From assembly GCA_950072105.1 (NCBI GenBank), contig CATMOE010000023.1, forward strand, positions 1 to 51,416: DNA of 51,416 nt, given 5' to 3'. The position numbers and the translations under genes were made by a program. This DNA comes from an uncultured Dehalococcoidia bacterium (GTDB lineage Bacteria > Chloroflexota > Dehalococcoidia > Lucifugimonadales > UBA3495). How positions within the stretch are numbered: position 1 is the stretch's first letter; every line of letters starts with the position of its first letter. The notes under the pieces were generated by a model, which worked only from the letters and a program-made list of their open reading frames with translations, had not been told where the DNA came from and ran no database searches. Shown here piece after piece: positions 7,426 through 29,278 of this stretch.

Positions 7426-7440
7426 ACCAACGGAGGGAGA

Positions 7441-8574: not shown

Positions 8575-8617
8575 CCCCGTCGCGGGTTTGTTGGTATCAG
8601 ATAGCCGCGAGGAAGAA

Positions 8618-10554: not shown

Positions 10555-10615
10555 CGGCGTCAACTTCTATCGGGTCTGGCTTAGCGATTAGAGCTCGATA
10601 AACGGAAAGGTGGCA

Positions 10616-12031
10616 ATGGCCCTCCAAGAAGAAATTGGATTGATGGCCCACTTGATGCGGCGCGCGGGCTTCGGCGATCCCCGTGAGGAACTGGAGGAGC
10701 GCGCCTCCAAGGGGTACGAAGCCGTGGTCGAAGAGCTCCTGCATCCGGAGTGCCGGCCGGCCATAGACGACGAACTGCTGTACCGCATGTTCCCGGGTTA
10801 TGAGGGGGCCGCGGCGCCGCCGATCAATCAGGCCGAATGGGTGTACCGGATGATAAACACCAAGCGGCCTCTGGAAGAGAAGATCGCCCTCTTCTGGCAT
10901 CAGTTGTTCGCCACCAGCAACTCCAAAGTAGACAATCCACCGGAGCTGACTCGACAGATCGCCATGTTCCGTGAATACGGATTTGGCACTTACCGTGACC
11001 TGCTGGTGGAGCTTGCCAAGTCGCCGGCCATGATCTTCTGGTTGGACAACCACGGCAACCATGACGGGGCCATAAACGAAAACTGGGGCCGGGAACTGTT
11101 GGAGCTTTTCTCCTTGGGCGTCGGTAACTACGCGGAGGATGATATCCGGGAAGCAGCCAGGGCTTTCACCGGATGGACGATCGCGCCCAAGATTCCCCGT
11201 AATCCTTTAGGCCGCTTTTACTGGGAATTCGAGTACAAACCTGAGGACCACGACGATCGGGAGAAGACCTTCCTAGGCCATACCGGGAACTTCGATGGCG
11301 AAGACATCGTGGACATTATCGCGAACCAGCCGGCAACAGCCCGGTTCCTGGCCCGTCACCTCTACAGGTTCTTCGTCGCCGACGAGCCTCACGTGTCCAG
11401 TTGGCACGTTACACCACCCATCGATCCTGATGCCATCCAGTTGTTGGTGGATGCCTACGATGAATCCCGTGGTGACATCCGGTCTATCTTGCGGGTATTG
11501 TTCAACTCAGAGTTCTTCAAGAGTGCCCGCTTCGCCCGAGTGAAATGCCCGGCCGAATTGATCGTTGGCACCGTGCGTATGGTAGGCAACTATAGCGGCT
11601 TCATGCCAGGCTTCAACAATCTGGCGTTGGAATGCGGCTGGCAGGGACAGGAGCTTCTCAATCCTCCCAGCGTGGAAGGTTGGCACACCGGATCAGAATG
11701 GATCGACCCCGGCGTCTTGATGCGCCGGGTGAATTTTGCCGCGAGAATACTAGGCGACACGTCCATACCCGGGGTGCAGGCTATCATTAAACGTGTGCTG
11801 ACGCATGGGCTTGCGGAAGGGAAGCTTTCTCCCCAGGCGATAGTGGCAGCTTGCCTTGATACCATGGGGCCGTTGGAAGTCAGCGAGGCGACTCGCGCTG
11901 AGTTGATGGCCCATGCCGAAAAAGATGGCGAGTTGTCTTGGAACACCAATGAGGAACTTAGAGCTACGGTAGGGAAGGTGAGCAAGATATTAACCCTGAT
12001 CGCCGCCTCCCGGGAATATCAGTTTGCCTAG
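10616..12031 (+). CDS. DUF1800 family protein (copy 2)
   Basis: Same motifs as 6013..7425 (AHLMRRAGFG, NENWGRELLELFSLG, EYQFA). Confidence 0.9.
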   Translation: MALQEEIGLMAHLMRRAGFGDPREELEERASKGYEAVVEELLHPECRPAIDDELLYRMFPGYEGAAAPPINQAEWVYRMINTKRPLEEKIALFWHQLFATSNSKVDNPPELTRQIAMFREYGFGTYRDLLVELAKSPAMIFWLDNHGNHDGAINENWGRELLELFSLGVGNYAEDDIREAARAFTGWTIAPKIPRNPLGRFYWEFEYKPEDHDDREKTFLGHTGNFDGEDIVDIIANQPATARFLARHLYRFFVADEPHVSSWHVTPPIDPDAIQLLVDAYDESRGDIRSILRVLFNSEFFKSARFARVKCPAELIVGTVRMVGNYSGFMPGFNNLALECGWQGQELLNPPSVEGWHTGSEWIDPGVLMRRVNFAARILGDTSIPGVQAIIKRVLTHGLAEGKLSPQAIVAACLDTMGPLEVSEATRAELMAHAEKDGELSWNTNEELRATVGKVSKILTLIAASREYQFA

Positions 12032-12060
12032 GCGAGGGTCTACACATTCTCTTGAAGGAC

Positions 12061-13203
12061 ATGAGCATGGCATCAACCCATAAAGACCCCGTGCTGGTCG
12101 TATTAGAGCTTACCGGGGCCAACGATTACCTCAATACGATCGTTCCTTATGCCGATCCTCTGTATTGGGATAACCGGCCCAAGGTTAATATCGCTGAAGA
12201 CCAATTGCTGATCATAGATGATGAACTGGCTTTCCGGTCTGATACCGAGCCGTTGAAAGAGATCTACGACGCCGGGAAGATGGCGATCATTCACGGTATC
12301 GGTTTCGACAATTCACCCCGCTCCCACTTTCGTGCCATGGACATCTGGCATACCTGCGAACCGGATTCCATCGGGATCAACGGCTGGCTCGGCAAGGTCA
12401 TCCGGGACTTGGATCCCGGCGGCGAGAACGTGCTAAAGGGAGTGAATCTAGGTCAGGGGTTGCCCCGGGCGCTCACCATGCGGGGGGTCCCGGTTACCTC
12501 CGTCAACCACCTTCCTACCTACGGCGTGCTCTCATCGAATCCGGGGATCGCGTCCGATCAAGAGCAGGTTCAATTATTGGACAGCTTCGCCAAGATGTAC
12601 GCTCCCGCCATCGGCGCCGGACCGGCGATGGAATATTTGGGACAGGCCGGACGAGACGCGTTGAGAGGAGCCGACATCATCCGGGTCGCGCCTGAAACGT
12701 ACTCTTCAAACGTCGAATACGCTAATAACACAATCGCCAGGCGCCTAAGAGACGTGGCGCAGGTGCATCTTGCCGGTCTGGGGACGCAGGTTTTTTACAC
12801 GTCTCACGGGCCCTTCGACACTCACTATGACCAGTTGGGATCACATACTAAGATTTGGATGGAAGTTTCCGCCGCCATCTCCGACTTCTTCACCGACCTG
12901 CGTGAGCACGACGCGGCCGGCGAGGTGGTCATGATGGTGTTCAGCGAGTTTGGCCGCCGCGTCCGCGATAATGGAACCGGCACCGACCACGGGGCGGCTG
13001 GGGTGGCGTTCGCCATCGGCGACCGGGTAAATGGTGGGATGTACGGGACCTATCCGTCGTTGAAACCGGGAGATCTCTCTCAAGGAGACCTGGCCCCCAA
13101 CTACGATTTCCGTGGCTTTTACTCCACTTTAGCCGACAAATGGTTGGGACTCGACCCGGTGCCAATCGTCGGCGGAAACTTCGAGCAGATGTCCTTCGTC
13201 TAG
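12061..13203 (+). CDS. DUF1501 family protein (copy 2)
   Basis: Same motifs as 7441..8574 (RSHFRAMDIW, FDTH, SEFGRR..NGTGTDHG). Confidence 0.9.
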   Translation: MSMASTHKDPVLVVLELTGANDYLNTIVPYADPLYWDNRPKVNIAEDQLLIIDDELAFRSDTEPLKEIYDAGKMAIIHGIGFDNSPRSHFRAMDIWHTCEPDSIGINGWLGKVIRDLDPGGENVLKGVNLGQGLPRALTMRGVPVTSVNHLPTYGVLSSNPGIASDQEQVQLLDSFAKMYAPAIGAGPAMEYLGQAGRDALRGADIIRVAPETYSSNVEYANNTIARRLRDVAQVHLAGLGTQVFYTSHGPFDTHYDQLGSHTKIWMEVSAAISDFFTDLREHDAAGEVVMMVFSEFGRRVRDNGTGTDHGAAGVAFAIGDRVNGGMYGTYPSLKPGDLSQGDLAPNYDFRGFYSTLADKWLGLDPVPIVGGNFEQMSFV

Positions 13204-13240
13204 CCCTACGAATCACTGATTCTTTCACCGGAGAGCAGAA

Positions 13241-14239
13241 ATGCTGACCACCGTCGCCGCCGGCCGGGTTTATGACTACAGCTACTGCATCGGCATGTAC
13301 AGTCAGTCCGGCCAGGGATTTTGGGCCCCCCAGGATTTCGTCCTGGGAGCGAACGGCCGGATCTATGTGTTGAGCCGCGGTGTGGAACAGTTAGGGCAGC
13401 GTGTCAGCAAGATCAACTTTGACCAGCAGTTTCAAGGCCAGTTCGGCTCCGTTGGCGCCGAAGATGGGCGCTTTGTTTGGCCCCGGTCCATCGATCTAGA
13501 CAATCACGGCCGAGTGTTCGTTTCCGATGAATATGTCAACCGGATCACCATATACGACGAAGAGGGCGCATATAGATATCATTGGGGCAAGCCCGGCAGC
13601 GAAGACGGCCAGCTAAACGGACCGTCAGGTATCGCTTTCGATTCCCGCGGAACTATTTGGGTCGTGGACAGCATGAATCACCGGGTGCAAAGCTTCAGTC
13701 AGCTTGGCGAGTTCCAGTCCAAGTTCGGGAAGCAAGGTAGCGGCGACGGAGATATGGAGATGCCGTGGGGCATCTGCGTCGATCGCCACGACAACATCTA
13801 CGTCGCCGATTGGGGAAATAATCGGGTGCAAAAATTCGCCCCTACCGGAGAGTTGCTGGTTAAGTTCGAAGCCTCAAGCACCGGGGCGGGCTCTCTCAAA
13901 GGGCCATCCGGTGTGGCTGTGGACTCGGACGGGGATGTATACGTAACCGACTGGGGAAACCACCGCGTCCAGATCTACGCCGCCGACGGCCAATATATAA
14001 CCGCGCTGGCCGGTGACGCCCAAGAACCTTCGCGCTGGACTCAAACGTACATCGACGCCAATCCCGACATTGTCAAAGCCAGGCGCCGGGTAGATCTGGA
14101 GCCTGAATGGAGGTTCCGGCGGCCGGTGGCGGTAAACATTGACGCCGACGACCGGATCATAGTTTTGGAGTCATACCGGCACCGGCTCCAGATCTACAAC
14201 AAGCTAAAGGATTACGAAGAACACGCTCTTAACTTGTAG
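13241..14239 (+). CDS. NHL-repeat beta-propeller protein (copy 2)
   Basis: NHL repeats; paralogous to 8618..9598 including the C-terminal RFRRPVAV motif. Confidence 0.9.
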   Translation: MLTTVAAGRVYDYSYCIGMYSQSGQGFWAPQDFVLGANGRIYVLSRGVEQLGQRVSKINFDQQFQGQFGSVGAEDGRFVWPRSIDLDNHGRVFVSDEYVNRITIYDEEGAYRYHWGKPGSEDGQLNGPSGIAFDSRGTIWVVDSMNHRVQSFSQLGEFQSKFGKQGSGDGDMEMPWGICVDRHDNIYVADWGNNRVQKFAPTGELLVKFEASSTGAGSLKGPSGVAVDSDGDVYVTDWGNHRVQIYAADGQYITALAGDAQEPSRWTQTYIDANPDIVKARRRVDLEPEWRFRRPVAVNIDADDRIIVLESYRHRLQIYNKLKDYEEHALNL

Positions 14240-14272
14240 GTATATTCAGATCAGCTTGGTGGAACCTAATAA

Positions 14273-14305
14273 CAGAAAAGCCCCCTCAATGAGGGGGCTT
14301 TTCTG
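14273..14305. terminator. Bidirectional intrinsic terminator
   Basis: CAGAAAAGCCCCCTC-AAT-GAGGGGGCTTTTCTG between convergent genes. Confidence 0.85.
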
Positions 14306-14361
14306 GTTGTTAAGGGTCAGGTAGTTTGCCCGTCAGTGATGGGCAAACTACCTGCCCGTTT

Positions 14362-16317
14362 TTACCGCTTGTCAAGGAGAGGTGTTTCGTTGGCGGCGCT
14401 CCCTGCGATCCGTCCCGCCTTCTCAACGAGGCCGGTGAATTCTTCCACATCTTGGTCGCCGGACAACAAGTTGTTGACCCGTCGCGCCACCGCGATCACT
14501 TGCTCCATGTTGCTGTCCTGGGCCCAGTAGCTCTCGCGAAGGATCTCCGCGTACTCGGCCACTGCGGCATCGAGTTGAAGGCGGGGCGATGCTTCCTCGA
14601 ACACTGTTGTTAACTCTTTCCGGTGGAATTCTCGAGAGATCTCTTGGACATCGCCAGATTCAGGGTCTTGATAACGGATGTACACCGTGGCGATCCGCCC
14701 TTGGACATCATCCGAGAGCTTAATCTCGTACAATGCCGTCACCGTGTGCCCGGCGCCCACCTCCGCAGCGTCCACGGTGTCGTTTCGGAAGTCCCGGTCG
14801 GCTATCCTCCGGTTCTCATATCCCAGCAACCGGTAACGGCTGACCACGCTGGGGTCGAAGTCTACCTGCACCTTAGCGTCTTTGGCGATCACCTGCAGCA
14901 TACCCGTAAGGTTCTCGACGAACACCCGGCGGGCCTGGCTGAGAGTGTCCACATAGGCGTAGTTACCGTCGCCGTCGTTGGCCAACTGCTCCATTAGTAC
15001 ATCGTTGAAATTCCCTATGCCAAAGCCGACAGTGGACAGTGTTATTTCGTCATTGGCGTAGCGGCGCACTTCCCTTAGGATCGAGTCCGGCCCGGTACGT
15101 CCAACGTTGGCCACGCCGTCGGAAAGTAGGATCACACGAGTGATGCGCCCCGGCTTAACCAGCCGGTTCGCCATCTGGTACCCCAAGCGTAAGCCCTCCT
15201 CCGCATTGGTGCTACCTCCTGGGGTCAACTTGAAGATGGCATTCAGGATCTCTTCTTTGTCCTCGCCGCTGGTAGGCTCCAGTACAACCTGCCCGTGAGA
15301 CCCATAGACCACGATGCCAACATCATCGGTGGGGCGCAACTCGTCCACCAGCAGGCGAAGGGACTTTTTTACCAGACCGAGCCGGCCCTCCCGGCCCATG
15401 GACCCGGAGACATCGATCACGAACACCAGAGACGCATCCTTACGCTCTGCCGTTGGGATAACGCGGCCCTGAAGACCGACACGGATCAACCAGCGCTTCT
15501 CCCCGCCGAAAGGTGACGGGGCGCCGTCTATATGGATGGCAAAGGTACCCTCGGCGGGAGGCTCATATTCCTGATCGAAGTAGTTGATGAACTCTTCCAC
15601 CCGAACCGAGTCGGGATTCGGCAGGTGTCCATCCACCACAAAACGCCGGGCCACGGTATACGACGCCGTATCCACGTCCATGGCGAATGTGGAAAACCGG
15701 TCATCCTCGGTATCGATGAAGGGGTTCACCCCGTAGTGCTTGAAAAAATTAGCGTCGTATGGAGCGTCGTTTACCGTTGCCGACCCGCCGGTAGAAAACC
15801 CGGATTGATCATCGCTCCCACTGGGTACGCTAAGCGCTTGAACCCTAGAGAAGGCCTGGGGAACCGAAGTAGCCCGGGGTCCCGCACTACCCTGAGGTCC
15901 CGCACTAGCTTGAGCGTTAGAAAAGGCCAGATACTCCTTGTTCGCTTGGGAGTTCGAATTGGCGTCTGTGCTCGAATATACCTGCGGAGCCGGAGTTCGT
16001 TGGGAATCCAAGACAGCCCGAGCGCTCCCAGTAGACTCAGATGCCATGATGGCTAGGGAATGTGAGGCATCGCCTCCGCTCGAAAAGCGGGTCACCATCG
16101 GAAAGGTTACGGCCAGAACCAGCATCACCACGCCAAGGGCGGCCGCCGATCCGAGGGCGGGCGCCAGCCACCGCCTGGGAGACTTCTGTGCTGGACTTTG
16201 TATTCCGGCTTCCACCGCCGGCCAAAGGTCGCGCCTTGGCATGATATTGTTCAGCTCTTCAGCCAGGGCAGCCTCGATCAGCTGTTCGTTGAATTCTGGG
16301 ATCTCTTTCTCTCTCAT
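14362..16317 (-). CDS. YfbK-like vWA-domain membrane protein (vWF_A + VWA + DUF3520), probable anti-sigma partner
   Basis: N-terminal TM helix; STFAMDVDTASY, VRVEEFINYF, MIDAS DVSGSM, LLSDGVANVG, YRLLGYENR; overlaps the ECF stop by 4 nt. Confidence 0.9.
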   Translation of the reverse strand: MREKEIPEFNEQLIEAALAEELNNIMPRRDLWPAVEAGIQSPAQKSPRRWLAPALGSAAALGVVMLVLAVTFPMVTRFSSGGDASHSLAIMASESTGSARAVLDSQRTPAPQVYSSTDANSNSQANKEYLAFSNAQASAGPQGSAGPRATSVPQAFSRVQALSVPSGSDDQSGFSTGGSATVNDAPYDANFFKHYGVNPFIDTEDDRFSTFAMDVDTASYTVARRFVVDGHLPNPDSVRVEEFINYFDQEYEPPAEGTFAIHIDGAPSPFGGEKRWLIRVGLQGRVIPTAERKDASLVFVIDVSGSMGREGRLGLVKKSLRLLVDELRPTDDVGIVVYGSHGQVVLEPTSGEDKEEILNAIFKLTPGGSTNAEEGLRLGYQMANRLVKPGRITRVILLSDGVANVGRTGPDSILREVRRYANDEITLSTVGFGIGNFNDVLMEQLANDGDGNYAYVDTLSQARRVFVENLTGMLQVIAKDAKVQVDFDPSVVSRYRLLGYENRRIADRDFRNDTVDAAEVGAGHTVTALYEIKLSDDVQGRIATVYIRYQDPESGDVQEISREFHRKELTTVFEEASPRLQLDAAVAEYAEILRESYWAQDSNMEQVIAVARRVNNLLSGDQDVEEFTGLVEKAGRIAGSAANETPLLDKR

Positions 16318-16955
16318 AGTATTTCTTCTCCAGGTTTCGGTTCTCCAGCCCAGCTCATTCTGTCCGCCGTTTCACTTGGTCTATGAGACGTTGGCTGAAT
16401 CACCATTTCAGTGGTCAAAGGAGAGGATAGTGCGGCAAAGTTTTCGCGCAACCGGCGTAGGGCGTAGTGGACACGAGACTTCACCGTCCCCAGCCGGCAC
16501 CCCAGGGCCACCGCCGTCTCGGCTTCACTGAAACCCTGGTAGTAGCGCAAGACCACCGCGGCACGGTGCTTCGGCTCCAGGGTGCCCAGGGCGTTTCGAA
16601 CGGCCGACCGTAGCTCCGAATCCTCGGCGGCCTGCTCAGGGGTGGTGGAAGGCGAAGGGAGTTCGGCGGCGTCCTCGATAGGGACATCCCGTCCTTTCCG
16701 GCGCCGAAGCTCGTCCAGACTGCGATGCACCGCGATCCGGTGGAGCCATGGCGGGAAGGGGCGGCGCGCATCGTAGCGCCTGATGGCGGTGAATAGCTCG
16801 ATGAAAACCTGCTGGGTAACGTCTTCGGCCAGATCGTGCCGCCGCACGATGCCGTAAGAGGTACGAAAGACGGACCGGTGATGAAGCTCAAAGAGAACTC
16901 CCAGAGCCACCACATTCCCAGCCTGACATTGTAGGATCGCCTCTTGCTCTTCCAA
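16314..16955 (-). CDS. ECF-type RNA polymerase sigma factor
   Basis: AEDVTQQVF, FPPWLHRIA region 2; VLRYYQGFS..ETAVALG..LGTVKSR region 4. Confidence 0.92.
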   Translation of the reverse strand: MEEQEAILQCQAGNVVALGVLFELHHRSVFRTSYGIVRRHDLAEDVTQQVFIELFTAIRRYDARRPFPPWLHRIAVHRSLDELRRRKGRDVPIEDAAELPSPSTTPEQAAEDSELRSAVRNALGTLEPKHRAAVVLRYYQGFSEAETAVALGCRLGTVKSRVHYALRRLRENFAALSSPLTTEMVIQPTSHRPSETADRMSWAGEPKPGEEIL

Positions 16956-17188
16956 TTGCCCTCCCTATACCAGGGGCCGCTTACCTCTTCCTTCCAACCT
17001 ATATTCGTATAGACGGGAAGAAAGGTTCATTTTCAAGACGGAACTCACCGGGAAAAGGTTCCACGGCATTCTTCAACCGCACCAGTGGCGTGGGCTCGTG
17101 AACTGATCGCCAATTCATCGTGGGCATGATGACTATCATGATCGGGTTCTTCGGGGACATCTTGGCAGATATGATTCGCCATCGCATA

Positions 17189-17512
17189 TCAAGGCCGCGG
17201 CGTTGAGGATTTCTTGAATCGCGATATAAACCTGACTGCTTCAGGAAGAGCAGCCGCACCCCGGGAGGTTACCCTCAACCAGCCGAGGCCCGGGAGAACC
17301 GGACTCATAACCTCGAATACGCCCTTGGCCAAGCGTACCCTGCTCCGCGCGACCTCGGCCGCCCCGTGGATATCCTCGGCGGCGATACCTACCCGCTCCA
17401 ACGCTTGAGACGCCCTTCCGTATAGCTTGGTGCTAACGATGATAAGAACAAGCGACGTAATGGTTCCAGTGACTCCGAATACGATGACGACGATGTCGCG
17501 GCCAGTGTCCAT
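17189..17512 (-). CDS. Small hypothetical membrane protein
   Basis: AAGGAAGG RBS, N-terminal hydrophobic helix. Confidence 0.6.
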   Translation of the reverse strand: MDTGRDIVVIVFGVTGTITSLVLIIVSTKLYGRASQALERVGIAAEDIHGAAEVARSRVRLAKGVFEVMSPVLPGLGWLRVTSRGAAALPEAVRFISRFKKSSTPRP

Positions 17513-17544
17513 GACTTTACCCTTCCTTCAAATGCGCTATGACT

Positions 17545-17621
17545 TGGTGGCGGCGCTCGGATTAGAGCCGAGACCTGACTCATTGCAGGAGAACCGCTTT
17601 GACCACCTAAGCTACGGGTCC
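17545..17621 (-). pseudogene. Degenerate copy of the array tRNA-Ala(UGC)
   Basis: Co-linear with 18032..18108; three acceptor mismatches, T loop CTCTAAT; CCA retained. Confidence 0.75.
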
Positions 17622-17630
17622 TGATTTCTA

Positions 17631-17705
17631 TGGTGGGGACGGCTGGATTCGAACCAACGGCCTGCCGCTTATCAGACGGCTGCTCTACCCCTGAGCTACG
17701 TCCCT
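17631..17705 (-). tRNA. tRNA-Ile(GAU)
   Basis: Loop CTGATAA, stem GCCGT/GCGGC, A1:C72 mismatch, CCA. Confidence 0.9.
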
Positions 17706-17706
17706 A

Positions 17707-17782
17707 TGGCGCGCCTGCCAGGAATTGAACCTGGGGCCTCAGGTTTAGGAAACCTTTGCTCTATCCGCTGAGCTACAGGCGC
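17707..17782 (-). tRNA. tRNA-Arg(CCU)
   Basis: Loop TTCCTAA, acceptor GCGCCTG/CAGGCGC, CCA. Confidence 0.9.
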
Positions 17783-17783
17783 T

Positions 17784-17861
17784 TGGTATCGGCGGTAGGA
17801 GTCGAACCCACACTGACCTGGTCTTAAGCCAGACGCCTCTGCCTGATTGGGCTACGCCGAC
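17784..17861 (-). tRNA. tRNA-Leu(UAA), short variable region
   Basis: Loop CTTAAGA, Leu-type D arm, A73, 5-nt variable region. Confidence 0.85.
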
Positions 17862-17865
17862 AAGT

Positions 17866-17942
17866 TGGTGGGCCAGGTAGGATTCGAACCTACACTCTTC
17901 CGTTTTTGAGACGGATGCGTCTGCCGATTGCGCCACTGACCC
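17866..17942 (-). tRNA. tRNA-Leu(CAA), short variable region
   Basis: Loop CTCAAAA, stem TCCGT/ACGGA, 5-nt variable region, A73-CCA. Confidence 0.88.
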
Positions 17943-17958
17943 GGGCATCGGTAATACG

Positions 17959-18031
17959 CGGTAACCCATGGGAATCGAACCCCCGGCTCTCCCATACGAG
18001 GTCGCACGTTACCGATTACACCGCTATGGTT
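17959..18031 (-). pseudogene. Pseudo-tRNA, isotype unassignable
   Basis: D-loop-like TAATCGGTAA and GGTTCGATTCC remain; anticodon and acceptor stems broken; ends CCG. Confidence 0.6.
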
Positions 18032-18108
18032 TGGTGGAAGCGCTCGGACTCGAACCGAGACCTGACTCTTTGCAGGAGAGCCGCTCTCGCCATTTAAGCT
18101 ACGCCCCC
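18032..18108 (-). tRNA. tRNA-Ala(UGC), C33
   Basis: G3:U70, A73, loop CCTGCAA. Confidence 0.88.
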
Positions 18109-18109
18109 A

Positions 18110-18195
18110 TGGATGATTTATTGAAGCCACCGGGAGGACTCCCGAACCCCGATTCGCAGCTTCAAAGATTGCCATGTCGCCTTCAGACGAATCAT
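18110..18195 (-). ncRNA. tRNA-Gln(UUG)-derived rearranged RNA ending in CCA
   Basis: CTTTGAAGCTGC shared with 20196..20266; closing ATGATT/AATCAT-CCA; 3' insert GTGGCTTCAA complementary to the anticodon arm. Confidence 0.45.
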
Positions 18196-18198
18196 TTG

Positions 18199-18284
18199 TG
18201 GCGGAAGGTGAGGGAATCGAACCCCCGAGCCCGTTAGGGCCAACTGTTTTCTAGACAGCGTCCTCGACCAACCGGACACCTTCC
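18199..18284 (-). tRNA. tRNA-Ser(AGA), A34
   Basis: Loop CTAGAAA in stem GCTGT/ACAGT, long variable arm, G73-CCA. Confidence 0.85.
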
Positions 18285-18287
18285 ATT

Positions 18288-18361
18288 TGGCAGTGGGAGT
18301 TGGAGTCGAACCAACGTTTCCTGGGTCAGAGCCAGACGTCCTACCGCTGAACGACCCCACT
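18288..18361 (-). tRNA. tRNA-Gln(CUG)
   Basis: Loop CTCTGAC, G73-CCA. Confidence 0.9.
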
Positions 18362-18362
18362 C

Positions 18363-18458
18363 TGGTTCCGAGGGCTGGAATTGAACCAGCGCCGCGCTGC
18401 GCCCTTCAGCAGAAGGGCTGCGCTTCAGGCAACCGCTCTACCCCTGAGCTACCTCGGA
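18363..18458 (-). tRNA. tRNA-Phe(GAA) with a 21-nt insertion 3' of the anticodon
   Basis: Perfect acceptor, D and T arms, loop CTGAAGC; extra CCTTCTGCTGAAGGGCGCAGC makes the gene 96 nt. Confidence 0.8.
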
Positions 18459-18473
18459 ATGCTGTAAGACAAA

Positions 18474-18567
18474 TGGCGGAAAGGGTGGGCTTCGAACCCA
18501 CGGGTCCTTCGGTTGAAGGACCGCCCGATTAGCAGCCGGGTGCCTTCAGCCTCTCAGCCACCTTTCC
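18474..18567 (-). tRNA. tRNA-Ser(GCU)
   Basis: Loop CTGCTAA, long variable arm GGTCCTTC/GAAGGACC, G73-CCA. Confidence 0.92.
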
Positions 18568-18570
18568 TTA

Positions 18571-18629
18571 TGGCGGCTTGGGAATCAATCCCACGTTCTT
18601 CCGCTCGATAAGCGGGCGCAACGGCCGCC
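18571..18629 (-). pseudogene. D-armless tRNA-like element, probably Asp-derived
   Basis: CCCGC-TTATCGA-GCGGA arm resembles tRNA-Asp TCCGT-CTGTCGA-GCGGA; T-like arm GGG-ATTGATT-CCC; ends GCCA. Confidence 0.5.
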
Positions 18630-18646
18630 CTTACTAATGATCTGAT

Positions 18647-18722
18647 TGGCACCAGGGGCAGGACTCGAACCTGCACTCCACCGATTAACAGGCGGTTGCT
18701 TTACCGATTAAGCTACCCTGGT
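18647..18722 (-). tRNA. tRNA-Asn(GUU)
   Basis: Loop CTGTTAA, G73-CCA. Confidence 0.92.
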
Positions 18723-18723
18723 G

Positions 18724-18795
18724 TGCGGAAGCCCGTCAGGCTCCGAATCAGCGCGCGCCCGGTTAAAAGCCGGAAGCTCTACTGGGGCACACTGA
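18724..18795 (-). pseudogene. Pseudo-tRNA-Lys(UUU)
   Basis: Intact anticodon arm TCCGG-CTTTTAA-CCGGG after GTAGAGC; T and acceptor arms degenerate, no CCA. Confidence 0.55.
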
Positions 18796-18800
18796 GATAT

Positions 18801-18887
18801 TGGTGCCAGAGGCAGGACTTGAACCTGCAAGAGGTTTCCCTCGACCGGTTTTGAGCCGGGTGCGTCTGCCGATTCCGCCACTCTGGC
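18801..18887 (-). tRNA. tRNA-Leu(CAA), long variable arm
   Basis: Loop CTCAAAA, variable arm GAGG-GAAA-CCTC, A73-CCA. Confidence 0.92.
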
Positions 18888-18900
18888 ATTTGATTGTCTT

Positions 18901-18974
18901 TGGAGGGCCTGACAGGGATCGAACCTGTGTCTCCAGCTTGGAGGGCTGGCACTCAGCCACTAAGTCACAGACCC
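18901..18974 (-). tRNA. tRNA-Gly(UCC), C33
   Basis: Loop CCTCCAA in CCAGC/GCTGG, U73-CCA. Confidence 0.88.
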
Positions 18975-19050
18975 TGGAGCCCCTGGAGAGATTCGAACTC
19001 TCGGCACTCTGGTTCGAAGCCAGATGCTCTGTCCGCTGAGCTACAGGGGC
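18975..19050 (-). tRNA. tRNA-Arg(UCG)
   Basis: Loop CTTCGAA in TCTGG/CCAGA; CCA abuts the next tRNA with no spacer. Confidence 0.9.
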
Positions 19051-19057
19051 ATGAGAT

Positions 19058-19133
19058 TGGTCAGCTTGCCTGGAATCGAACCAGGTCCTGCCGGGCCACA
19101 TCCGGCCGGGCTACCTTTACACCACGAAGCTGA
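19058..19133 (-). tRNA. tRNA-His(GUG), atypical (U-1:A73)
   Basis: Loop ATGTGGC in GCCGG/CCGGC; weak D stem; extra base in acceptor region. Confidence 0.75.
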
Positions 19134-19208
19134 TGGAGCCTTCGGGAGGACTTGAACCCCCCTCAACTGTTTACAAGACAGCCGCTCTACCGGATGAGCT
19201 ACGAAGGC
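19134..19208 (-). tRNA. tRNA-Thr(UGU)
   Basis: Loop CTTGTAA, acceptor GCCTTCG/CGAAGGC, CCA. Confidence 0.92.
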
Positions 19209-19212
19209 TGAT

Positions 19213-19287
19213 TGGAGTGTCTGACGGGAATCGAACCCGTATCCTCGCCATGGCACGGCGATGTCCTGCCGTTAAAACCACAGACAC
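19213..19287 (-). tRNA. tRNA-Gly(GCC)
   Basis: Loop GTGCCAT in TCGCC/GGCGA, U73-CCA. Confidence 0.88.
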
Positions 19288-19288
19288 T

Positions 19289-19364
19289 TGGTGGAATCGG
19301 AGAGACTCGAACTCTCAACGTTCGGTGTAAAAGACCGCTGCTCTGCCGATTGAGCTACGATTCC
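19289..19364 (-). tRNA. tRNA-Lys(UUU)
   Basis: Loop CTTTTAC, acceptor GGAATCG/CGATTCC, A73-CCA. Confidence 0.88.
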
Positions 19365-19367
19365 ATT

Positions 19368-19443
19368 TGGTGGGACCGGAGGGCGTCGAACCCTCAACCT
19401 CCCGGGTAAGAACCGGGTACTCTGCCGATTGAGTTACAGTCCC
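19368..19443 (-). tRNA. tRNA-Lys(CUU)
   Basis: Loop TTCTTAC in CCCGG/CCGGG, A73-CCA. Confidence 0.92.
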
Positions 19444-19444
19444 A

Positions 19445-19519
19445 TGGCGCCCCTAGCAGGAGTCGAACCCACAACTTCTGGGTAGAAACCAGACGCCCTC
19501 TCCGTTGGGCTATAGAGGC
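19445..19519 (-). tRNA. tRNA-Arg(UCU)
   Basis: Loop TTTCTAC in TCTGG/CCAGA, G73-CCA. Confidence 0.9.
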
Positions 19520-19520
19520 T

Positions 19521-19597
19521 TGGTTGAGCCGGGTGGAGTCGAACCACCAGTCTTCCGCTTATGAGACGGGTGCTGTAACCGATTTAGCTACGGCTCA
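19521..19597 (-). tRNA. tRNA(CAU): elongator Met or Ile2
   Basis: Loop CTCATAA, acceptor TGAGCCG/CGGCTCA, A73-CCA; no initiator features. Confidence 0.88.
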
Positions 19598-19715
19598 ATG
19601 ACAGCCGGGCCTCCCTGGCCCGAATCTTGACCCAGAGTGACTTGATATTGGACTTACGCGTGACCTTGGCCACGGCTCGGTCCTTCTTTTGATCGCGCCT
19701 TTCGCTCCGCTGCAT
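19584..19715 (-). CDS. 43-aa Lys/Arg-rich small protein inside the tRNA array; stop codon lies within tRNA(CAU)
   Basis: AGGAGG 4 nt before ATG; MQRSERRDQKKDRAVAKVTRKSNIKSLWVKIRAREARLSLSRS fills the longest non-rtcB gap in the array. Confidence 0.7.
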   Translation of the reverse strand: MQRSERRDQKKDRAVAKVTRKSNIKSLWVKIRAREARLSLSRS

Positions 19716-19732
19716 GAAGCCTCCTATTTTTC

Positions 19733-19804
19733 TGGCAGGGACGGTAGGAGTCGAACCCACGGGCTGGAGATTTGGAGGCTCCACCGCGCCCAGCGCTCGT
19801 CCCT
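19733..19804 (-). tRNA. tRNA-Trp(CCA), miniature D arm
   Basis: Loop CTCCAAA, G73-CCA, D arm GCGC-TGG-GCGC. Confidence 0.8.
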
Positions 19805-19808
19805 CTGA

Positions 19809-19862
19809 TGGTGTGCTGCGGCCGCAAATCCGGTCACTCGGATGCCGAACAAGCGGCGCAGC
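19809..19862 (-). ncRNA. Hairpin (minihelix-like) RNA ending in CCA
   Basis: Nested stems GCTGCG/CGCAGC, CCGC/GCGG, ATCCG/CGGAT, then ACACCA. Confidence 0.4.
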
Positions 19863-19870
19863 TTTGATTT

Positions 19871-19955
19871 TGGTAGGAGAGGAGGGACTCGAACCCCCAC
19901 GCCCGAAGGCATCTGTTTCTAAGACAGGTGTGTTTGCCAATTTCACCACTCTCCC
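19871..19955 (-). tRNA. tRNA-Leu(UAG)
   Basis: Loop CTTAGAA, long variable arm, A73-CCA. Confidence 0.92.
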
Positions 19956-20023
19956 ATATCTGCTCCATGGCCAGATAGGCTCGTCTTACGTAATTTACTG
20001 AGCCAGCCGAGCCATGTTTATTT

Positions 20024-20110
20024 TGGTGCCGCAGGAAGGATTTGAACCTTCAAGCCCGAACGGGCGGGTGGGTTACAGCCACTTGGTGTCACCGATCACC
20101 GCTCTACGGC
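20024..20110 (-). tRNA. tRNA-Tyr(GUA)
   Basis: Loop CTGTAAC, long variable arm GCCCG-TT-CGGGC, A73-CCA; D arm irregular. Confidence 0.85.
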
Positions 20111-20115
20111 ATATG

Positions 20116-20191
20116 TGGTGGGGCCGGGGGGAGTCGAACCCGCCGTCGACTGAATGAGAATCAGCCATCCTAACCATTAGACGACGGCCCC
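20116..20191 (-). tRNA. tRNA-Glu(CUC)
   Basis: Loop TTCTCAT in GCTGA/TCAGT, Glu-type D arm GTCTAATGGTTAGGAT. Confidence 0.88.
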
Positions 20192-20195
20192 AGGT

Positions 20196-20266
20196 TGGCA
20201 GCGGTACTAGGAGTCGAACCCAGCCTTGCAGCTTCAAAGGCTGCTCGATGCCCCGCACCTACCGCT
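20196..20266 (-). tRNA. tRNA-Gln(UUG), miniature D arm
   Basis: Loop CTTTGAA in GCAGC/GCTGC, G73-CCA, D arm GTGC-GGG-GCAT. Confidence 0.8.
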
Positions 20267-20267
20267 G

Positions 20268-20342
20268 TGGCAGCCCCGGCGGGAATCGAACCCGCATCTC
20301 TGCGTTACGAACGCAGTGCATTGGCCGTTGTGCTACGGGGCA
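20268..20342 (-). tRNA. tRNA-Thr(CGU)
   Basis: Loop TTCGTAA in CTGCG/CGCAG; U1:U72 mismatch; CCA. Confidence 0.82.
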
Positions 20343-20346
20343 GCCG

Positions 20347-21498
20347 TTAGGTCCCCTTGTAGTTGAGGACCTGGTGCAGCTCGTGGATCGGTCGGCACAG
20401 GTCTTTTTGGTCTGCCATGACCTGGTCGATATCCTTGTAAGCCGCGGGGTGCTCGTCCAGAAGCGCCTTAGCATGGTCTACATTCCAGGACTTCCCTTCC
20501 ATCAAGACGTAGAGACCGTCCACGCCATCGAGCGAAAGCTCTTTCTTGGCAGCGGTCCTGCTCCGTGACCGGCCTGCGCCGTGGGAAGAAGAGTTGTAGG
20601 GGTCCGGGTTGCCTAGCCCTTCGGTTATAAATGACTTGGTCCCCATGCTCCCAGGCACGACTCCCAGCTTGCCCGGACCGGCGTCGATGGCTCCCTTCCG
20701 GGTCACCCAGACCTGCTCACCGAAGTGGGTTTCCTGCTGAGTGAAGTTGTGGTGGCAGTTGATTCGCTGGACCTCCTTGCCCCACGTAAGCCGGAACAAC
20801 TGATCCAGGACCGCGTTCATCATCTGCTCCCGGTTCTCAAGCGCGTAGTCCTGAGCCCAGAGCATGTCGTTGATGTAAGCGCCGAACTCCGGCTGGGACT
20901 CCTGGAAGTAGGCCAGGTCTTTGTCCTCCAGCGGGACGCTGTTGCAGAGAGCCTTGGCAACTTTGATGTGCTGGATAGCCAGCTTGTTGCCGATGCCCCG
21001 CGAGCCGGAGTGAATCACAACCCAGACTGTCTCGTTCTCGTCCAGGCAGACCTCTACGAAGTGGTTGCCCGAACCCAAGGTTCCCAACTGCAGCACCGCT
21101 GTCTGAGCCATACTCTGGACTCGATCTGAACCTCGGTGCTTGTCCATCCAGAGCGCCGCGTCCCGGCTTAGATGGCTGGTCTTGGAGTGCTGCTTCCCTA
21201 CCCCGGCCGGAACGCTTCGGCTGATCTCGCCATGCAACCCGTCCAAGCTGTCTGGCAGTTTATCGGCACTGAGGTTGGTCTGTACGGCGATCATTCCGCA
21301 GCCGATGTCCACACCTACTGCCGCCGGGATAACCGCTCCCTTGGTTGGGATGACCGAGCCTACGGTGGCTCCCATCCCCAGGTGCGCATCTGGCATCAAA
21401 GCCACGTGCCCGGCGATAACCGCCGACCGGGACAACATCTCAGCCTGAAGCCTAGTGTTTTCGTCGAGTGTGCTTGCCCAATTCATTACCGAACCCAT
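20347..21498 (-). CDS. rtcB: RtcB 3'-phosphate/5'-hydroxyl RNA ligase
   Basis: MPDAH.G.G, PAAVGVDIGCGM, LGTLGSGNHF, HSGSRG, HHNF, RKGA, PGSMG, SHGAGR, DE.PAAYKDI; AGGAGG RBS. Confidence 0.97.
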   Translation of the reverse strand: MGSVMNWASTLDENTRLQAEMLSRSAVIAGHVALMPDAHLGMGATVGSVIPTKGAVIPAAVGVDIGCGMIAVQTNLSADKLPDSLDGLHGEISRSVPAGVGKQHSKTSHLSRDAALWMDKHRGSDRVQSMAQTAVLQLGTLGSGNHFVEVCLDENETVWVVIHSGSRGIGNKLAIQHIKVAKALCNSVPLEDKDLAYFQESQPEFGAYINDMLWAQDYALENREQMMNAVLDQLFRLTWGKEVQRINCHHNFTQQETHFGEQVWVTRKGAIDAGPGKLGVVPGSMGTKSFITEGLGNPDPYNSSSHGAGRSRSRTAAKKELSLDGVDGLYVLMEGKSWNVDHAKALLDEHPAAYKDIDQVMADQKDLCRPIHELHQVLNYKGT

Positions 21499-21519
21499 GA
21501 CTTCCTCCTATTTTTGTTT

Positions 21520-21595
21520 TGGCGGGGCCAACGGGTCTCGAACCCGTAACCTTCCGCTCGACAGACGGATGCTCTGCCAACTGAGCTATGACCCC
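21520..21595 (-). tRNA. tRNA-Asp(GUC)
   Basis: Loop CTGTCGA, G73-CCA. Confidence 0.92.
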
Positions 21596-21612
21596 TTTTG
21601 ACTAACTTGAAT

Positions 21613-21686
21613 CGGAAGCGGGACCGGGAGTCGAACCCGGAGAAGCTGGCTTATGAGACCTGCCCAGGGATCCGCCCATCCCCGCA
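21613..21686 (-). tRNA. Atypical tRNA(CAU), Pyl-like architecture, possibly pseudo
   Basis: Loop CTCATAA, perfect T arm, 5-nt D loop, extended anticodon stem, 3-nt variable region, U1:U72, ends CCG. Confidence 0.6.
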
Positions 21687-21689
21687 ACG

Positions 21690-21763
21690 TGGTAGCCCTG
21701 CCGAGAATCGAACTCGGTTATCCGGTTTGAAGGACCGGCGCCCTACCAATAGGCAACAGGGCC
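21690..21763 (-). tRNA. tRNA-Glu(UUC), C33
   Basis: Loop CCTTCAA in CCGGT/ACCGG, CCA. Confidence 0.85.
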
Positions 21764-21783
21764 AAATATAAAGACGATTGATC

Positions 21784-21865
21784 TGGAGGCATGCTTGGAG
21801 CCTAGGCCGGTGAGCATGCCAGTCACCAAAGCCTGGAACAGCCCGCACGGCTGCTTCCAAGCGCC
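21784..21865 (-). ncRNA. Structured non-tRNA RNA ending in UCCA
   Basis: Hairpins GCTTGGAAGCAGCC/GGCTGTTCCAGGC and GGCATGCT/AGCATGCC-TCCA; no T loop. Confidence 0.45.
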
Positions 21866-21874
21866 TTGCATGGT

Positions 21875-21948
21875 TGGTAGCCCCGCCTGGATTCGAACCA
21901 GGGGTCCCGGTATGTAACACCGGCGCCTTACCGCTTGGCCACGAGGCT
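21875..21948 (-). tRNA. tRNA-Val(UAC)
   Basis: Loop GTTACAT in CCGGT/ACCGG, A73-CCA. Confidence 0.88.
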
Positions 21949-21978
21949 CCGTTTATCAATTGATCAACTGTTCCTAGA

Positions 21979-21990
21979 TTGTTAAGGTGC
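21979..21990 (-). promoter_or_regulatory. boxA-like antitermination signal
   Basis: GCACCTTAACAA versus E. coli rrn boxA GCTCTTTAACAA (10/12), near the 5' end of the array. Confidence 0.5.
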
Positions 21991-22036
21991 TGGATCTCGT
22001 CAGGATTCGCACTGGCGTTACCTGCTGATTAATTTT

Positions 22037-22111
22037 TGGTCGGGGTGGGGAGATTCGAACTCCCGGCTCCCTGGTCCCAGGCCAGGTGCCCTACCGCTGG
22101 GCCACACCCCA
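22037..22111 (-). tRNA. tRNA-Pro(UGG), C33; first tRNA of the array
   Basis: Loop CCTGGGA in CCTGG/CCAGG, G72-A73-CCA. Confidence 0.9.
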
Positions 22112-22356
22112 ATGTGGTGGGGGATCATCCCCCCTGGGAGGGCGGCGGTGCGTGGCCGCCGCCCTCCCAGACCATGTGGTGGCCGGGCCGCCACCGTCAG
22201 TTATTCGATTTACTGAAACGTTCCTGTTCTGTTTTCCCATTTAAGAATCGAGTTTTCATGTCACCTCGATAGGGCTCTAATACCTTTTGTCTGGCGCCAA
22301 TTTGATTGGAACTCTCAAGATCACCAGGTTTCCGAACATTCACCACATGAGGCCAC

Positions 22357-22392
22357 AAAAAAAGAGCCCTGGGCTTTGCAGCACCAGGGCTC
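22357..22392 (-). terminator. Intrinsic terminator (attenuator) between the leader ORF and the tRNA array
   Basis: GAGCCCTGG-11 nt-CCAGGGCTC-TTTTTTT. Confidence 0.85.
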
Positions 22393-22417
22393 GTGTCAAG
22401 ACTCTATGTCTTAATCC

Positions 22418-22558
22418 CTAATCGCTGGCATACCCTCCGAATGTAGCGGTCGTCTCCTCACGGCCGAAATTCCAATTCGACGCATGATAAGTCGCGGCGC
22501 GCTCTGATGGGAGCGCTTTCTGGCTATTCAGTTGCCTTAACATTCTCGGTATGCCCAT
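22418..22558 (-). CDS. Putative 46-aa leader peptide
   Basis: MGIPRMLRQLNSQKALPSERAATYHASNWNFGREETTATFGGYASD*; between promoter and terminator; stop 25 nt before the terminator stem; RBS weak (AAGGT). Confidence 0.6.
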   Translation of the reverse strand: MGIPRMLRQLNSQKALPSERAATYHASNWNFGREETTATFGGYASD

Positions 22559-22618
22559 GATTTCCAACCTTTAGGTGTCGCTCTAGTGTTGCCACTTGTA
22601 AATGGCCTAGCTTCATTC

Positions 22619-22647
22619 AAAATACACTACGTTTTACAACTTGCCAA
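22619..22647 (-). promoter_or_regulatory. sigma70-like promoter of the leader/tRNA array
   Basis: TTGGCA-17 nt-TATTTT in an AT-rich divergent intergenic region. Confidence 0.55.
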
Positions 22648-22799
22648 TCCTTAAATAAGGTGTGTTTCAAACGAATATGTGACGTTATTCGTTGTCGCTA
22701 TTCCCCAGGCTGATCACCCGGCGGTACACAGCCACCTTGGAGCGTCCTATACTATCGGTATAATCTAGTGGATTCCCGCTGAACCTCGATCATAAGGAT

Positions 22800-29069: not shown

Positions 29070-29278
29070 GCTTTAAATTCGGTTGACTGGAGGGGAGCTT
29101 GACGGTGGGAGTGCCCCGTGGGGCATGTTACGTTGGCTTGGGCGGCTTGTCCATCCGGTCTCCCCTACAGGCTCCGGCTTAGCGGCGAGCAGGCTTCGTT
29201 CGAGACGAAGAAGCCGGTGGTACAATCCAAGCAGCCGTGGGGACCGGTAGGCGGCTTCATATTTCAGCGGAGGCAGTG

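Follow-up and report, generated by a model that had tools for sequence, protein, structure and literature searches.

A tRNA gene array with an embedded rtcB ligase gene and a terminator-containing leader in a variable island of a marine Dehalococcoidia genome

A cluster of tRNA genes enclosing a gene for the RNA ligase RtcB lies on a 51,416-nt stretch (the window; GenBank assembly GCA_950072105.1, contig CATMOE010000023.1, positions 1 to 51,416) from an uncultured Dehalococcoidia bacterium. The cluster consists of 31 tRNA genes, all on the minus strand between positions 17545 and 22111, which together cover 19 amino acids, only Cys being missing. It is probably a horizontally spread L-array with an embedded rtcB, carried in an accessory island and adding to a complete housekeeping set of tRNAs. 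L-arrays are defined in passages of the work that also reports the induction of the Anabaena array by ribosome inhibitors (PMC8421152).

ARAGORN recognized 29 of the array genes (minus strand, 17631-22111), and the Rfam model RF00005 supplied two more: a degenerate second copy of the array's Ala-TGC (17548-17621, 34.0 bits) and a class II tRNA whose anticodon is read as GTA, that is, Tyr (20027-20110, 38.5 bits). Two ARAGORN calls, Trp (19733-19804) and the second Met (21614-21686), are weak, and neither has an RF00005 match at E <= 10. The first block of five genes (21520-22111, minus strand) reads Pro-TGG, Val-TAC, Glu-TTC, Met-CAT (the weak call) and Asp-GTC, and the second block (17545-20342, minus strand) contains 26 genes, from Thr-CGT through the degenerate Ala-TGC. 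Leaving rtcB aside, the spacers measure 0-135 nt; Arg-TCG and Gly-TCC adjoin directly (0 nt), and seven spacers are a single nucleotide long. The 3' CCA is encoded in 30 of the 31 genes, the sole exception being Met 21614-21686. As it is also encoded in 44 of the host's 50 housekeeping tRNAs, this is the norm of the host and does not set the array apart. The first anticodon base is T34 in twelve anticodons. A sequence-only reading that preceded this analysis had described 31 co-oriented tRNAs for 19 amino acids without Cys, 30 CCA ends, a zero-length spacer, twelve U34 anticodons and an rtcB between the fifth and sixth tRNA, and each of these points holds.

The embedded gene (20347-21498, minus strand), between tRNA 5 (Asp) and tRNA 6 (Thr-CGT), encodes a short-form RtcB RNA ligase of 383 aa. 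The protein matches PF01139 over its full length (profile positions 1-426, E 4e-107); the NCBIfam RtcB models match it as well, but under their own cut-offs. RtcB reseals RNAs with 2',3'-cyclic phosphate and 5'-OH ends. The motifs VDIGCG, GSGNHF, HSGSRG, CHHN and SSHGAGR align with IGYDINCG, GSGNHF, HTGSRG, AHN and CHGAGR of the P. horikoshii enzyme (chain 1uc2/4dwq), whose metal-binding and GMP-accepting residues are D95, C98, N202/H203, H234, H329 and H404. Judged by this alignment, the metal-binding and His nucleophile positions are retained. The ATG lies 21 nt past the CCA of Asp and has its own GGAGG ribosome-binding site, and the stop codon lies 4 nt ahead of Thr-CGT. This is the sole RtcB gene found in the genome (92% complete), which likewise gave no match to RtcA (PF01137), RtcR (PF06956), archease or Ro60/TROVE; the lack of rtcA, rtcR and Ro60 previously remarked for the window thus extends to the whole assembly.

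The array is not the only source of tRNAs in its host. The assembly (4.08 Mb, 164 contigs, 57.6% GC; the window is contig C23) contains 50 other ARAGORN tRNA genes, dispersed on other contigs and serving all 20 amino acids plus Sec, many of them with sigma-70-like promoters (9-11 of 12 matches) located 5-100 nt upstream. This dispersed set with its own promoters shows that a housekeeping set exists, separate from the array as the sequence-only reading had supposed, and that the array adds to it. A housekeeping partner with the same anticodon is present for 26 of the 29 ARAGORN array tRNAs, the exceptions being Ala-TGC, Arg-TCT and Ser-AGA; the absence of partners for Ala-TGC and Arg-TCT may be due to the incomplete assembly alone.

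The kinship of the array tRNAs points away from the host. Identity to the host tRNA of the same anticodon is 0.56-0.83 (26 comparisons), and for 19 of 26 array tRNAs the best match in another array surpasses the one in the host. Eight array tRNAs are matched more closely in two rtcB-linked SAR202 arrays (L013 and L116, contigs from metagenome-assembled genomes or metagenomes), with identities of 0.91 for Ala, 0.89 for Gln, 0.87 for Ile, 0.87 for a class-I-sized Leu-CAA (L013), 0.83 for Asn, 0.81 for Ser-GCT, 0.78 for Thr-TGT and 0.76 for Phe. Several array tRNAs are 81-91% identical to SAR202 array tRNAs and only 60-78% to the host's own. No DNA match to the array or its leader was found in 39 relatives, which share only single tRNAs and, in some cases, rtcB. 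RtcB itself was found in 17 of 40 genomes (this one included) and in neither of the two same-genus genomes (85% and 95% complete). These comparisons show the foreign ancestry of the array, and its horizontal spread is probable as part of the joint interpretation given at the outset.

The genomic setting agrees with an accessory status. Synteny with the same-genus genome G002 (85-88% identity) ends at 14238 and resumes at 22714, although the two flanks lie on different G002 contigs, which makes this less than a clean empty-site comparison; the segment 15000-17640 has no match in G001, G002 or G020. This gap indicates that the array, its leader, an extracytoplasmic function (ECF) sigma gene and a VWA/YfbK gene form a variable island (14239-22713). 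The array has the ECF sigma gene and the VWA protein gene as immediate neighbours at one end, and an ABC transporter at its other end. No integrase, phage or mobile-element gene occurs in or next to the island, so the earlier remark that no integrase, transposase or phage gene flanks the array holds. A gene for a large serine recombinase with Resolvase, Recombinase and Zn-ribbon domains (1142-2614) lies ~15 kb from the array.

Comparison between strains shows that the array is maintained by purifying selection and not decaying. The same array is found in four metagenome contigs, L112 and L114 (~95% identity) and L110 and L111 (99.6-99.8%). Relative to L112/L114, 77 of 626 spacer positions differ (12.3%), against 68 of 1855 positions in tRNA genes (3.7%; 21 of them belong to one indel) and 34 of 1192 in rtcB (2.9%). 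The tRNA genes and rtcB hence change ~3-4 times less than the spacers. The codon differences of rtcB to L112 and L114 comprise 24 synonymous and 6 non-synonymous changes, and substitutions in the stems of the tRNAs for the most part preserve base pairing, through G-U pairs or restored Watson-Crick pairs. At least 0.91 of the sampled island words recur in 13 metagenomic DNA runs (9 studies; marine, seawater and vent samples), and one of these runs is possibly the source; the small word shares of RNA runs are no evidence of habitat. To judge from these comparisons, the island is a stable, selected part of the population.

The layout recurs elsewhere. Among the best rtcB homologue loci sampled, rtcB has co-oriented tRNAs both before and after it, at distances of up to 500 nt, at 12 of 80 genome loci, mostly from Acidimicrobiia/Actinomycetota and SAR202, at 8 of 75 metagenome loci (not counting five from the lineage of the window itself) and at 3 of 78 viral loci. 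If a tRNA on one side suffices, the counts are 20/80, 22/75 and 10/78, respectively. Since many contigs are short, these counts are lower bounds. The median gap between rtcB and the adjoining tRNA is 57 nt upstream and 66 nt downstream. In G020, a member of the same family, a six-tRNA array directly precedes rtcB, and in L113, which has the nearest RtcB relative (68% identity), a tRNA follows the gene. About 270 nt upstream of the G020 mini-array (L082 191-261, G020:C17), there is a match to a group II intron model of 35.2 bits, below the gathering score of 40. A tblastn search with the window RtcB matched 684 phage records. In a FastTree phylogeny of 222 RtcB rows, the window's RtcB belongs to a clade of 10 rows, mostly Chloroflexota, in agreement with the lineage of the host, and the embedded state requires at least 13-18 changes, which repeated gain and loss or incomplete contigs could explain.

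Several members of the array are irregular. The tRNA-Phe gene (18363-18458, minus strand) has a 21-nt insertion in its anticodon loop (18403-18423), with a 7-nt direct repeat at its flanks and a 7-bp hairpin of its own; the ~95%-identical array copy L114 lacks it and has a normal Phe of 75 nt. A spliced intron that needs RtcB was considered and rejected, as no tRNA-splicing endonuclease (PF01974) was found in the genome and the insert looks like a duplication or insertion. A Ser tRNA (18199-18284) has the anticodon AGA, with A34. The His tRNA (19058-19132) has A73 and lacks G-1, and two class-I-sized tRNAs (77-78 nt, 17784-17942) bear the Leu anticodons CAA and TAA. Five spacers are of tRNA size (76-90 nt; 17943-18031, 18109-18198, 18568-18646, 18723-18800 and 20192-20267) and keep T-arm-like GGTTCGA motifs, with weak tRNA-clan matches in two of them (20199-20267, 21 bits, and 17975-18059). 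Such spacers are probably decayed tRNA genes.

Upstream of tRNA-Pro, on the same strand, the array is preceded by a leader of ~500 nt. Its first element is a promoter-like site (TTGGCA-17-TATTTT, 9 of 12 matches; 22619-22647), and no other candidate with at least 9/12 matches lies in the 600 nt that precede the first tRNA; L111, a near-identical contig, has TTGATA as its -35 hexamer, also 5/6. Next comes a putative coding ORF of 46 codons plus stop (22418-22558, minus strand) with a weak Shine-Dalgarno sequence, which ends 26 nt ahead of the stem of an intrinsic terminator (22357-22392, minus strand). The terminator, ~250 nt downstream of the promoter-like site and 243 nt from tRNA-Pro, consists of a GC-rich 9+3 bp hairpin followed by U7 (-24.3 kcal/mol); its fold is matched by 2 of 200 shuffles and the element is unique in the genome. 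Directly upstream of tRNA-Pro, there are three consecutive GC-rich hairpins without a U tract (22115-22195, minus strand; -61.8 kcal/mol, z -5.9, none of 200 shuffles as good). The triple hairpin is unique in the genome too, and a genome-wide GC hairpin repeat is thereby rejected. The leader as a whole is unusually structured (z -5.7 over 509 nt), and neither it nor the triple hairpin matches an Rfam family at E <= 10 apart from noise.

How the array is transcribed can be approached from the distribution of these elements. No sigma-70-like candidate with at least 8/12 matches was found between the terminator and tRNA-Pro, and this speaks most strongly for array transcripts having to run through the terminator. 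Inside the array, the minus strand contains neither a consensus promoter nor a terminator, and the genes are packed too tightly around rtcB for it to have a consensus promoter of its own. The terminator is real and probably damps the array, and a gating of the array by this element is plausible.

The sequence-only reading went further and proposed that the array is controlled in cis by a leader peptide. Ribosome sensing by the leader ORF is not supported. The ORF belongs to no Pfam family, contains no codon runs and has no diverged homologue; its one database match, in a search over lengths of 25-81 residues, is an identical 41-aa protein on two contigs. It is free of substitutions in L110 and L111, but these contigs have none anywhere in 22112-22640 and are uninformative on conservation or coding of the leader. 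The 39 relatives show no conservation of the leader DNA, and an alignment with G020 shows no homology past the first tRNA-like gene. Ribosome-dependent antitermination found no support: with ribosome-sized parts of the ORF blocked, or all of it, the terminator still forms in each fold, and the terminated fold is 18 kcal/mol more stable than the best fold that lacks it. No competing antiterminator helix was found in the leader by constrained folds and a duplex search, and the best upstream pairing with the 5' arm of the terminator (-20.6 kcal/mol) is no stronger than that of shuffles (mean -21.0; 163 of 300 as good).

The sequence-only reading also suggested a search for other rtcB arrays with an upstream ORF and terminator in the leader. 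The arrays do recur, but a terminator-like hairpin with a T-run within 450 nt upstream is present in only 3 of 21 other rtcB-linked arrays and missing from 18. This crude scan, applied to arrays with at least 450 nt upstream, recovered the window's own terminator as a positive control; it is limited in that high-GC Actinomycetota may not use U-tract terminators. Two other modes of control were considered. The ECF-type site GGAAC-N15-18-CGTC does not occur in the leader, where a GGAAC...CTGAC match is at chance level (16 of 100 shuffles give at least 2 matches). A TrcR-type operator, in Anabaena a set of tandem 9-nt repeats over the -10 box and the transcription start, is matched with 2 mismatches exactly over the -10 element (22618-22638), but the window has 3 such matches against 3.09 expected.

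Contigs from four libraries filed as metatranscriptomes (4 studies) fall on pieces of the array, on rtcB and on the leader. One crosses the terminator without a difference (22314-22568), another joins rtcB and tRNA-Thr (20193-20416), and others extend over neighbouring tRNAs (e.g., 18954-19172 and 19279-19467). The window stretches left uncovered in the four RNA-library runs are uninformative.

A simple scheme would accommodate these features. One long transcript would start from the promoter-like site at 22647-22619, and most transcripts would stop at the intrinsic terminator ~250 nt downstream. The fraction that reads through would comprise five tRNAs, rtcB, 26 tRNAs and probably a 107-aa ORF beyond the array; its level may be set by leakiness, a protein factor or something else. 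RNase P and 3' trimming would excise the tRNAs and, given the gaps of 21 nt and 4 nt, simultaneously free an rtcB mRNA with a 21-nt leader and its own ribosome-binding site. The cell would thereby gain a second tRNA pool of divergent sequence, together with a ligase for 2',3'-cyclic phosphate/5'-OH ends, as a replace-and-repair kit against the loss of tRNAs to tRNases of toxin or phage-defence systems or to translational stress. Such a role of the tRNAs and RtcB is suggested by analogy with the Anabaena and phage literature. The emergency replace-and-repair operon envisaged in the sequence-only reading is supported in its anatomy, its redundancy with the housekeeping set and the lack of an internal consensus promoter, but not in its control by a leader peptide.

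Other explanations of the leader have to be weighed against this scheme. If the leader ORF encoded a ribosome-sensing peptide, stalled or slow translation would block the terminator and switch on the array and rtcB. The order of promoter-like site, short ORF, strong terminator and array is real, no other promoter candidate lies between terminator and first tRNA, and an RNA-library contig reads over the terminator, all of which speaks for such a switch. It is nevertheless improbable, given an ORF that stops 26 nt before the stem, a terminator that remains closed in all blocked folds with an advantage of 18 kcal/mol, a partner for its 5' arm at chance level, a weak ribosome-binding site, a peptide with neither diverged homologue nor one-codon runs, and a leader that is not conserved and whose terminator hairpin recurs in only 3/21 other arrays. 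A real possibility, if an unlikely one, is that the ORF and terminator constitute an independent small gene or RNA, the array being transcribed without gating from an unrecognized promoter further downstream. The strong terminator without a detectable antiterminator and the unusual structure of the leader would suit this, and the 243 nt before tRNA-Pro leave room for a non-consensus promoter; however, these 243 nt contain no ECF-type site and no sigma-70-like site with at least 8/12 matches, where housekeeping tRNA genes usually have 9-11/12, no Rfam family was recognized, and an RNA-library contig spans the terminator.

The nature of the array itself is also debatable. It could be passive cargo of a phage or mobile element, silent, decaying and without a role in the host. 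RtcB and tRNA arrays are frequent in phages (684 records; 10 of 78 viral loci with adjoining tRNAs), several members are degenerate, the tRNA-sized spacers resemble dead tRNAs, and single strains show the Phe insertion or a switched anticodon. Yet the spacers have diverged 3-4 times more than the tRNA genes and rtcB, changes in rtcB are mostly synonymous, the island persists near-verbatim in 13 DNA runs of 9 studies (one perhaps the source) and contains no phage or integrase gene, so that passive carriage seems quite unlikely. That the array is the main, constitutive tRNA source is scarcely credible: it does cover 19 amino acids and encodes CCA in 30 of 31 genes like the host's genes, but 50 other genes, many with strong promoters nearby, cover all 20 amino acids, Cys is missing from the array, the 500-nt leader contains a terminator, and same-genus genomes have no array at the site.

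A few observations weigh against the favoured account of a horizontally spread L-array with a damped, stress-related function. Promoter-like sites are barely more numerous than expected by chance (3 found against 2.2 expected in 6 kb). The RNA-library contigs are assemblies that tell neither strand nor level and may stem from carried-over DNA. At least three members seem to be defective (the Met at 21614-21686, the degenerate Ala copy and the Phe with the insertion), and several others have odd identity features, such as the A73 of His and the two class-I-sized 'Leu' tRNAs; not all may be chargeable. No mobile-element gene beside the island points to a means of transfer. Finally, the window's Chloroflexota neighbours on the RtcB tree are mostly not linked to arrays, and the link between rtcB and arrays may therefore have formed more than once instead of travelling as one cassette.

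The anticodon loops of the array are a further peculiarity. U33 is near-universal in tRNAs. In the array, the 7-nt anticodon loop differs from that of the host isoacceptor in 17 of 26 tRNAs, and C33 replaces U33 in 4 of 29, namely Pro-TGG (22037-22111), Glu-TTC (21690-21763), Gly-TCC (18901-18974) and Ala-TGC (18032-18108). In other bacterial rtcB-linked arrays, 94 of 369 tRNAs, spread over 23 of 27 arrays, lack T33 (89 have C33), and 87 of these 94 have an intact anticodon stem (5/5 pairs). The C33 is conserved in orthologous members, as in Gly-GCC (17 of 19 arrays), Glu-CTC (9 of 14) and Thr-CGT (8 of 16). Arrays on viral contigs lack T33 in only 1 of 247 tRNAs. The controls, which are thin, are 3 of 31 isolated tRNAs of the same loci and 3 of 50 host housekeeping genes, the host exceptions being the duplicate Val-GAC genes, which have C33, and a doubtful Trp. 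The two Val-GAC genes (loop TCGACAC; G000 C63:10570-10646 and C93:9550-9626) show that C33 is not exclusive to arrays.

The loops also vary between strains (L110, L111, L112 and L114), where the anticodon loop accounts for 10 of 51 unique tRNA substitutions, more than the expected 9% (binomial p 0.015, from a small and non-independent sample). These substitutions occur at positions 32, 33, 37 and 38 and include flips at position 33; in L114, the gene corresponding to Thr-CGT (20268-20342) reads CTG, a Gln anticodon. It might be imagined, tentatively and as a rather unlikely case, that chromosomal rtcB-linked arrays constitute a 'shadow' tRNA pool, whose non-standard, fast-changing loops would escape or soak up anticodon nucleases while the ligase reseals cut tRNAs, its mRNA being freed by tRNA processing and the leader terminator keeping the kit low. 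C33 as a general anti-nuclease change was rejected, and no such claim is made, because the K. lactis gamma-toxin is described, in the relevant passages, as indifferent to U33C in its cleavage (PMC2275089). Literature searches on position 33 in tRNA arrays and, judged from the listing, on C33/U33 in anticodon loops turned up nothing on bacterial arrays.

The remaining features of the region are of minor or doubtful significance. The ORF of 107 aa (17189-17512, minus strand) starts 33 nt past the last tRNA and has an N-terminal hydrophobic stretch; it belongs to no family, matches solely near-identical contigs and is possibly the last gene of the array unit. Between tRNA-Trp and tRNA-Met, a small ORF of 43 codons (19584-19715, minus strand) has a strong ribosome-binding site. 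Its status as a gene is doubtful: the last 14 nt, including the stop, lie inside tRNA-Met, 4 of 43 residues differ in L114, and no homologue in 238 loci or the host genome and no Pfam family was found. The A-rich GGAGG motif common to this ORF and rtcB is frequent genome-wide. Elsewhere in the island, the VWA/YfbK gene (14362-16317) overlaps the ECF sigma gene (16314-16955) by 4 nt, and a textbook ECF-type site (GGAAC-N17-CGTC, 17037-17062) lies ~80 nt upstream of the latter. Elsewhere in the window, a three-gene set for DUF1800, DUF1501 and NHL-repeat proteins is present in two tandem copies (6013-9598 and 10610-14239). A candidate tRNA-Gly(CCC) of 88 nt without CCA, called by ARAGORN, is located outside the array at 29132-29219 on the plus strand.

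The window extends the pairing of an L-array with RtcB, studied experimentally in one cyanobacterium only, to marine Dehalococcoidia. The pairing is seen again in Actinomycetota, SAR202 and viral contigs, an argument that spare tRNAs and RNA repair are functionally coupled, and the between-strain data show that such an array is kept by selection and does not decay. Two leads follow, the terminator-containing leader and the unusual anticodon loops, with their C33 and their variation at 32, 33, 37 and 38; the latter bear on the function of array tRNAs, be it translation, nuclease evasion or a role as decoys.

Several known systems resemble parts of this arrangement. In attenuators of the trpL, hisL and ermC type, a short ORF and an intrinsic terminator likewise precede the genes, but in the window neither an antiterminator nor a regulatory run of codons was found, and the peptide is not conserved. 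The enterobacterial rtcBA and rsr-yrlBA-rtcBA operons run under RtcR and sigma-54, and their RtcB ligase is also presumed to repair damaged tRNA or rRNA; in contrast, RtcA, RtcR, Ro60 and archease are without a match in the window's genome (92% complete), and the YrlA model gives only weak matches that arise from tRNA-like parts. The T4 enzymes Rnl and Pnk act against PrrC. Phage tRNA clusters with RNA ligases share with the window the combination of own tRNAs and an RNA-sealing enzyme, as well as anticodon loops that differ from those of the host, whereas the present array is chromosomal and its island free of phage genes. In excerpts of the phage literature, jumbo-phage tRNAs are said to be 'supplemented' by RtcB or Rnl ligases (PMC7824862), phage tRNAs, those of mycobacteriophages among them, are proposed to evade anticodon nucleases via loop mutations (PMC10264068), and mycobacterial array units are called a putative anti-defence system (PMC12803027). 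The arrays of Acidimicrobiia/Actinomycetota and SAR202 (L016, L026, L039, L063, L076, L013 and L116) also have tRNAs on both sides of rtcB, and many Actinomycetota arrays share the junction of rtcB with Thr-CGT, but their gene order is different, they usually include Cys and their RtcB is 54-61% identical to that of the window.

The closest counterpart is found in cyanobacteria. Full-text literature on RtcB with tRNA arrays or tRNA gene clusters yielded PMC8421152 and PMC10272220 and was otherwise unrelated. According to passages of these two papers, rtcB is co-regulated with the Anabaena L-array and is among the protein genes 'linked or embedded' in cyanobacterial arrays (PMC8421152, PMC10272220), and TrcR, the repressor of the PCC 7120 trn operon, is called restricted to cyanobacteria (PMC10272220). 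An rtcB in or beside tRNA arrays is thus already on record for cyanobacteria (PMC8421152), and the window is a further example. It differs from the PCC 7120 trn operon in belonging to Chloroflexota, in an rtcB enclosed by the array, 21 nt and 4 nt from the adjoining tRNAs, in the absence of an HNH endonuclease gene from the island, and in a 500-nt leader with an intrinsic terminator in place of a repressor-controlled promoter. Silence in normal growth and induction by translational stress are demonstrated for the Anabaena array only (PMC8421152). Both systems combine dozens of co-oriented tRNAs, some of them defective, that supplement a housekeeping set, and both show a linkage to rtcB and a patchy distribution pointing to horizontal transfer. 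With its tandem co-oriented genes, redundant isodecoders, scattered distribution and foreign origin, the window array shows the anatomy and the distribution of an L-array.

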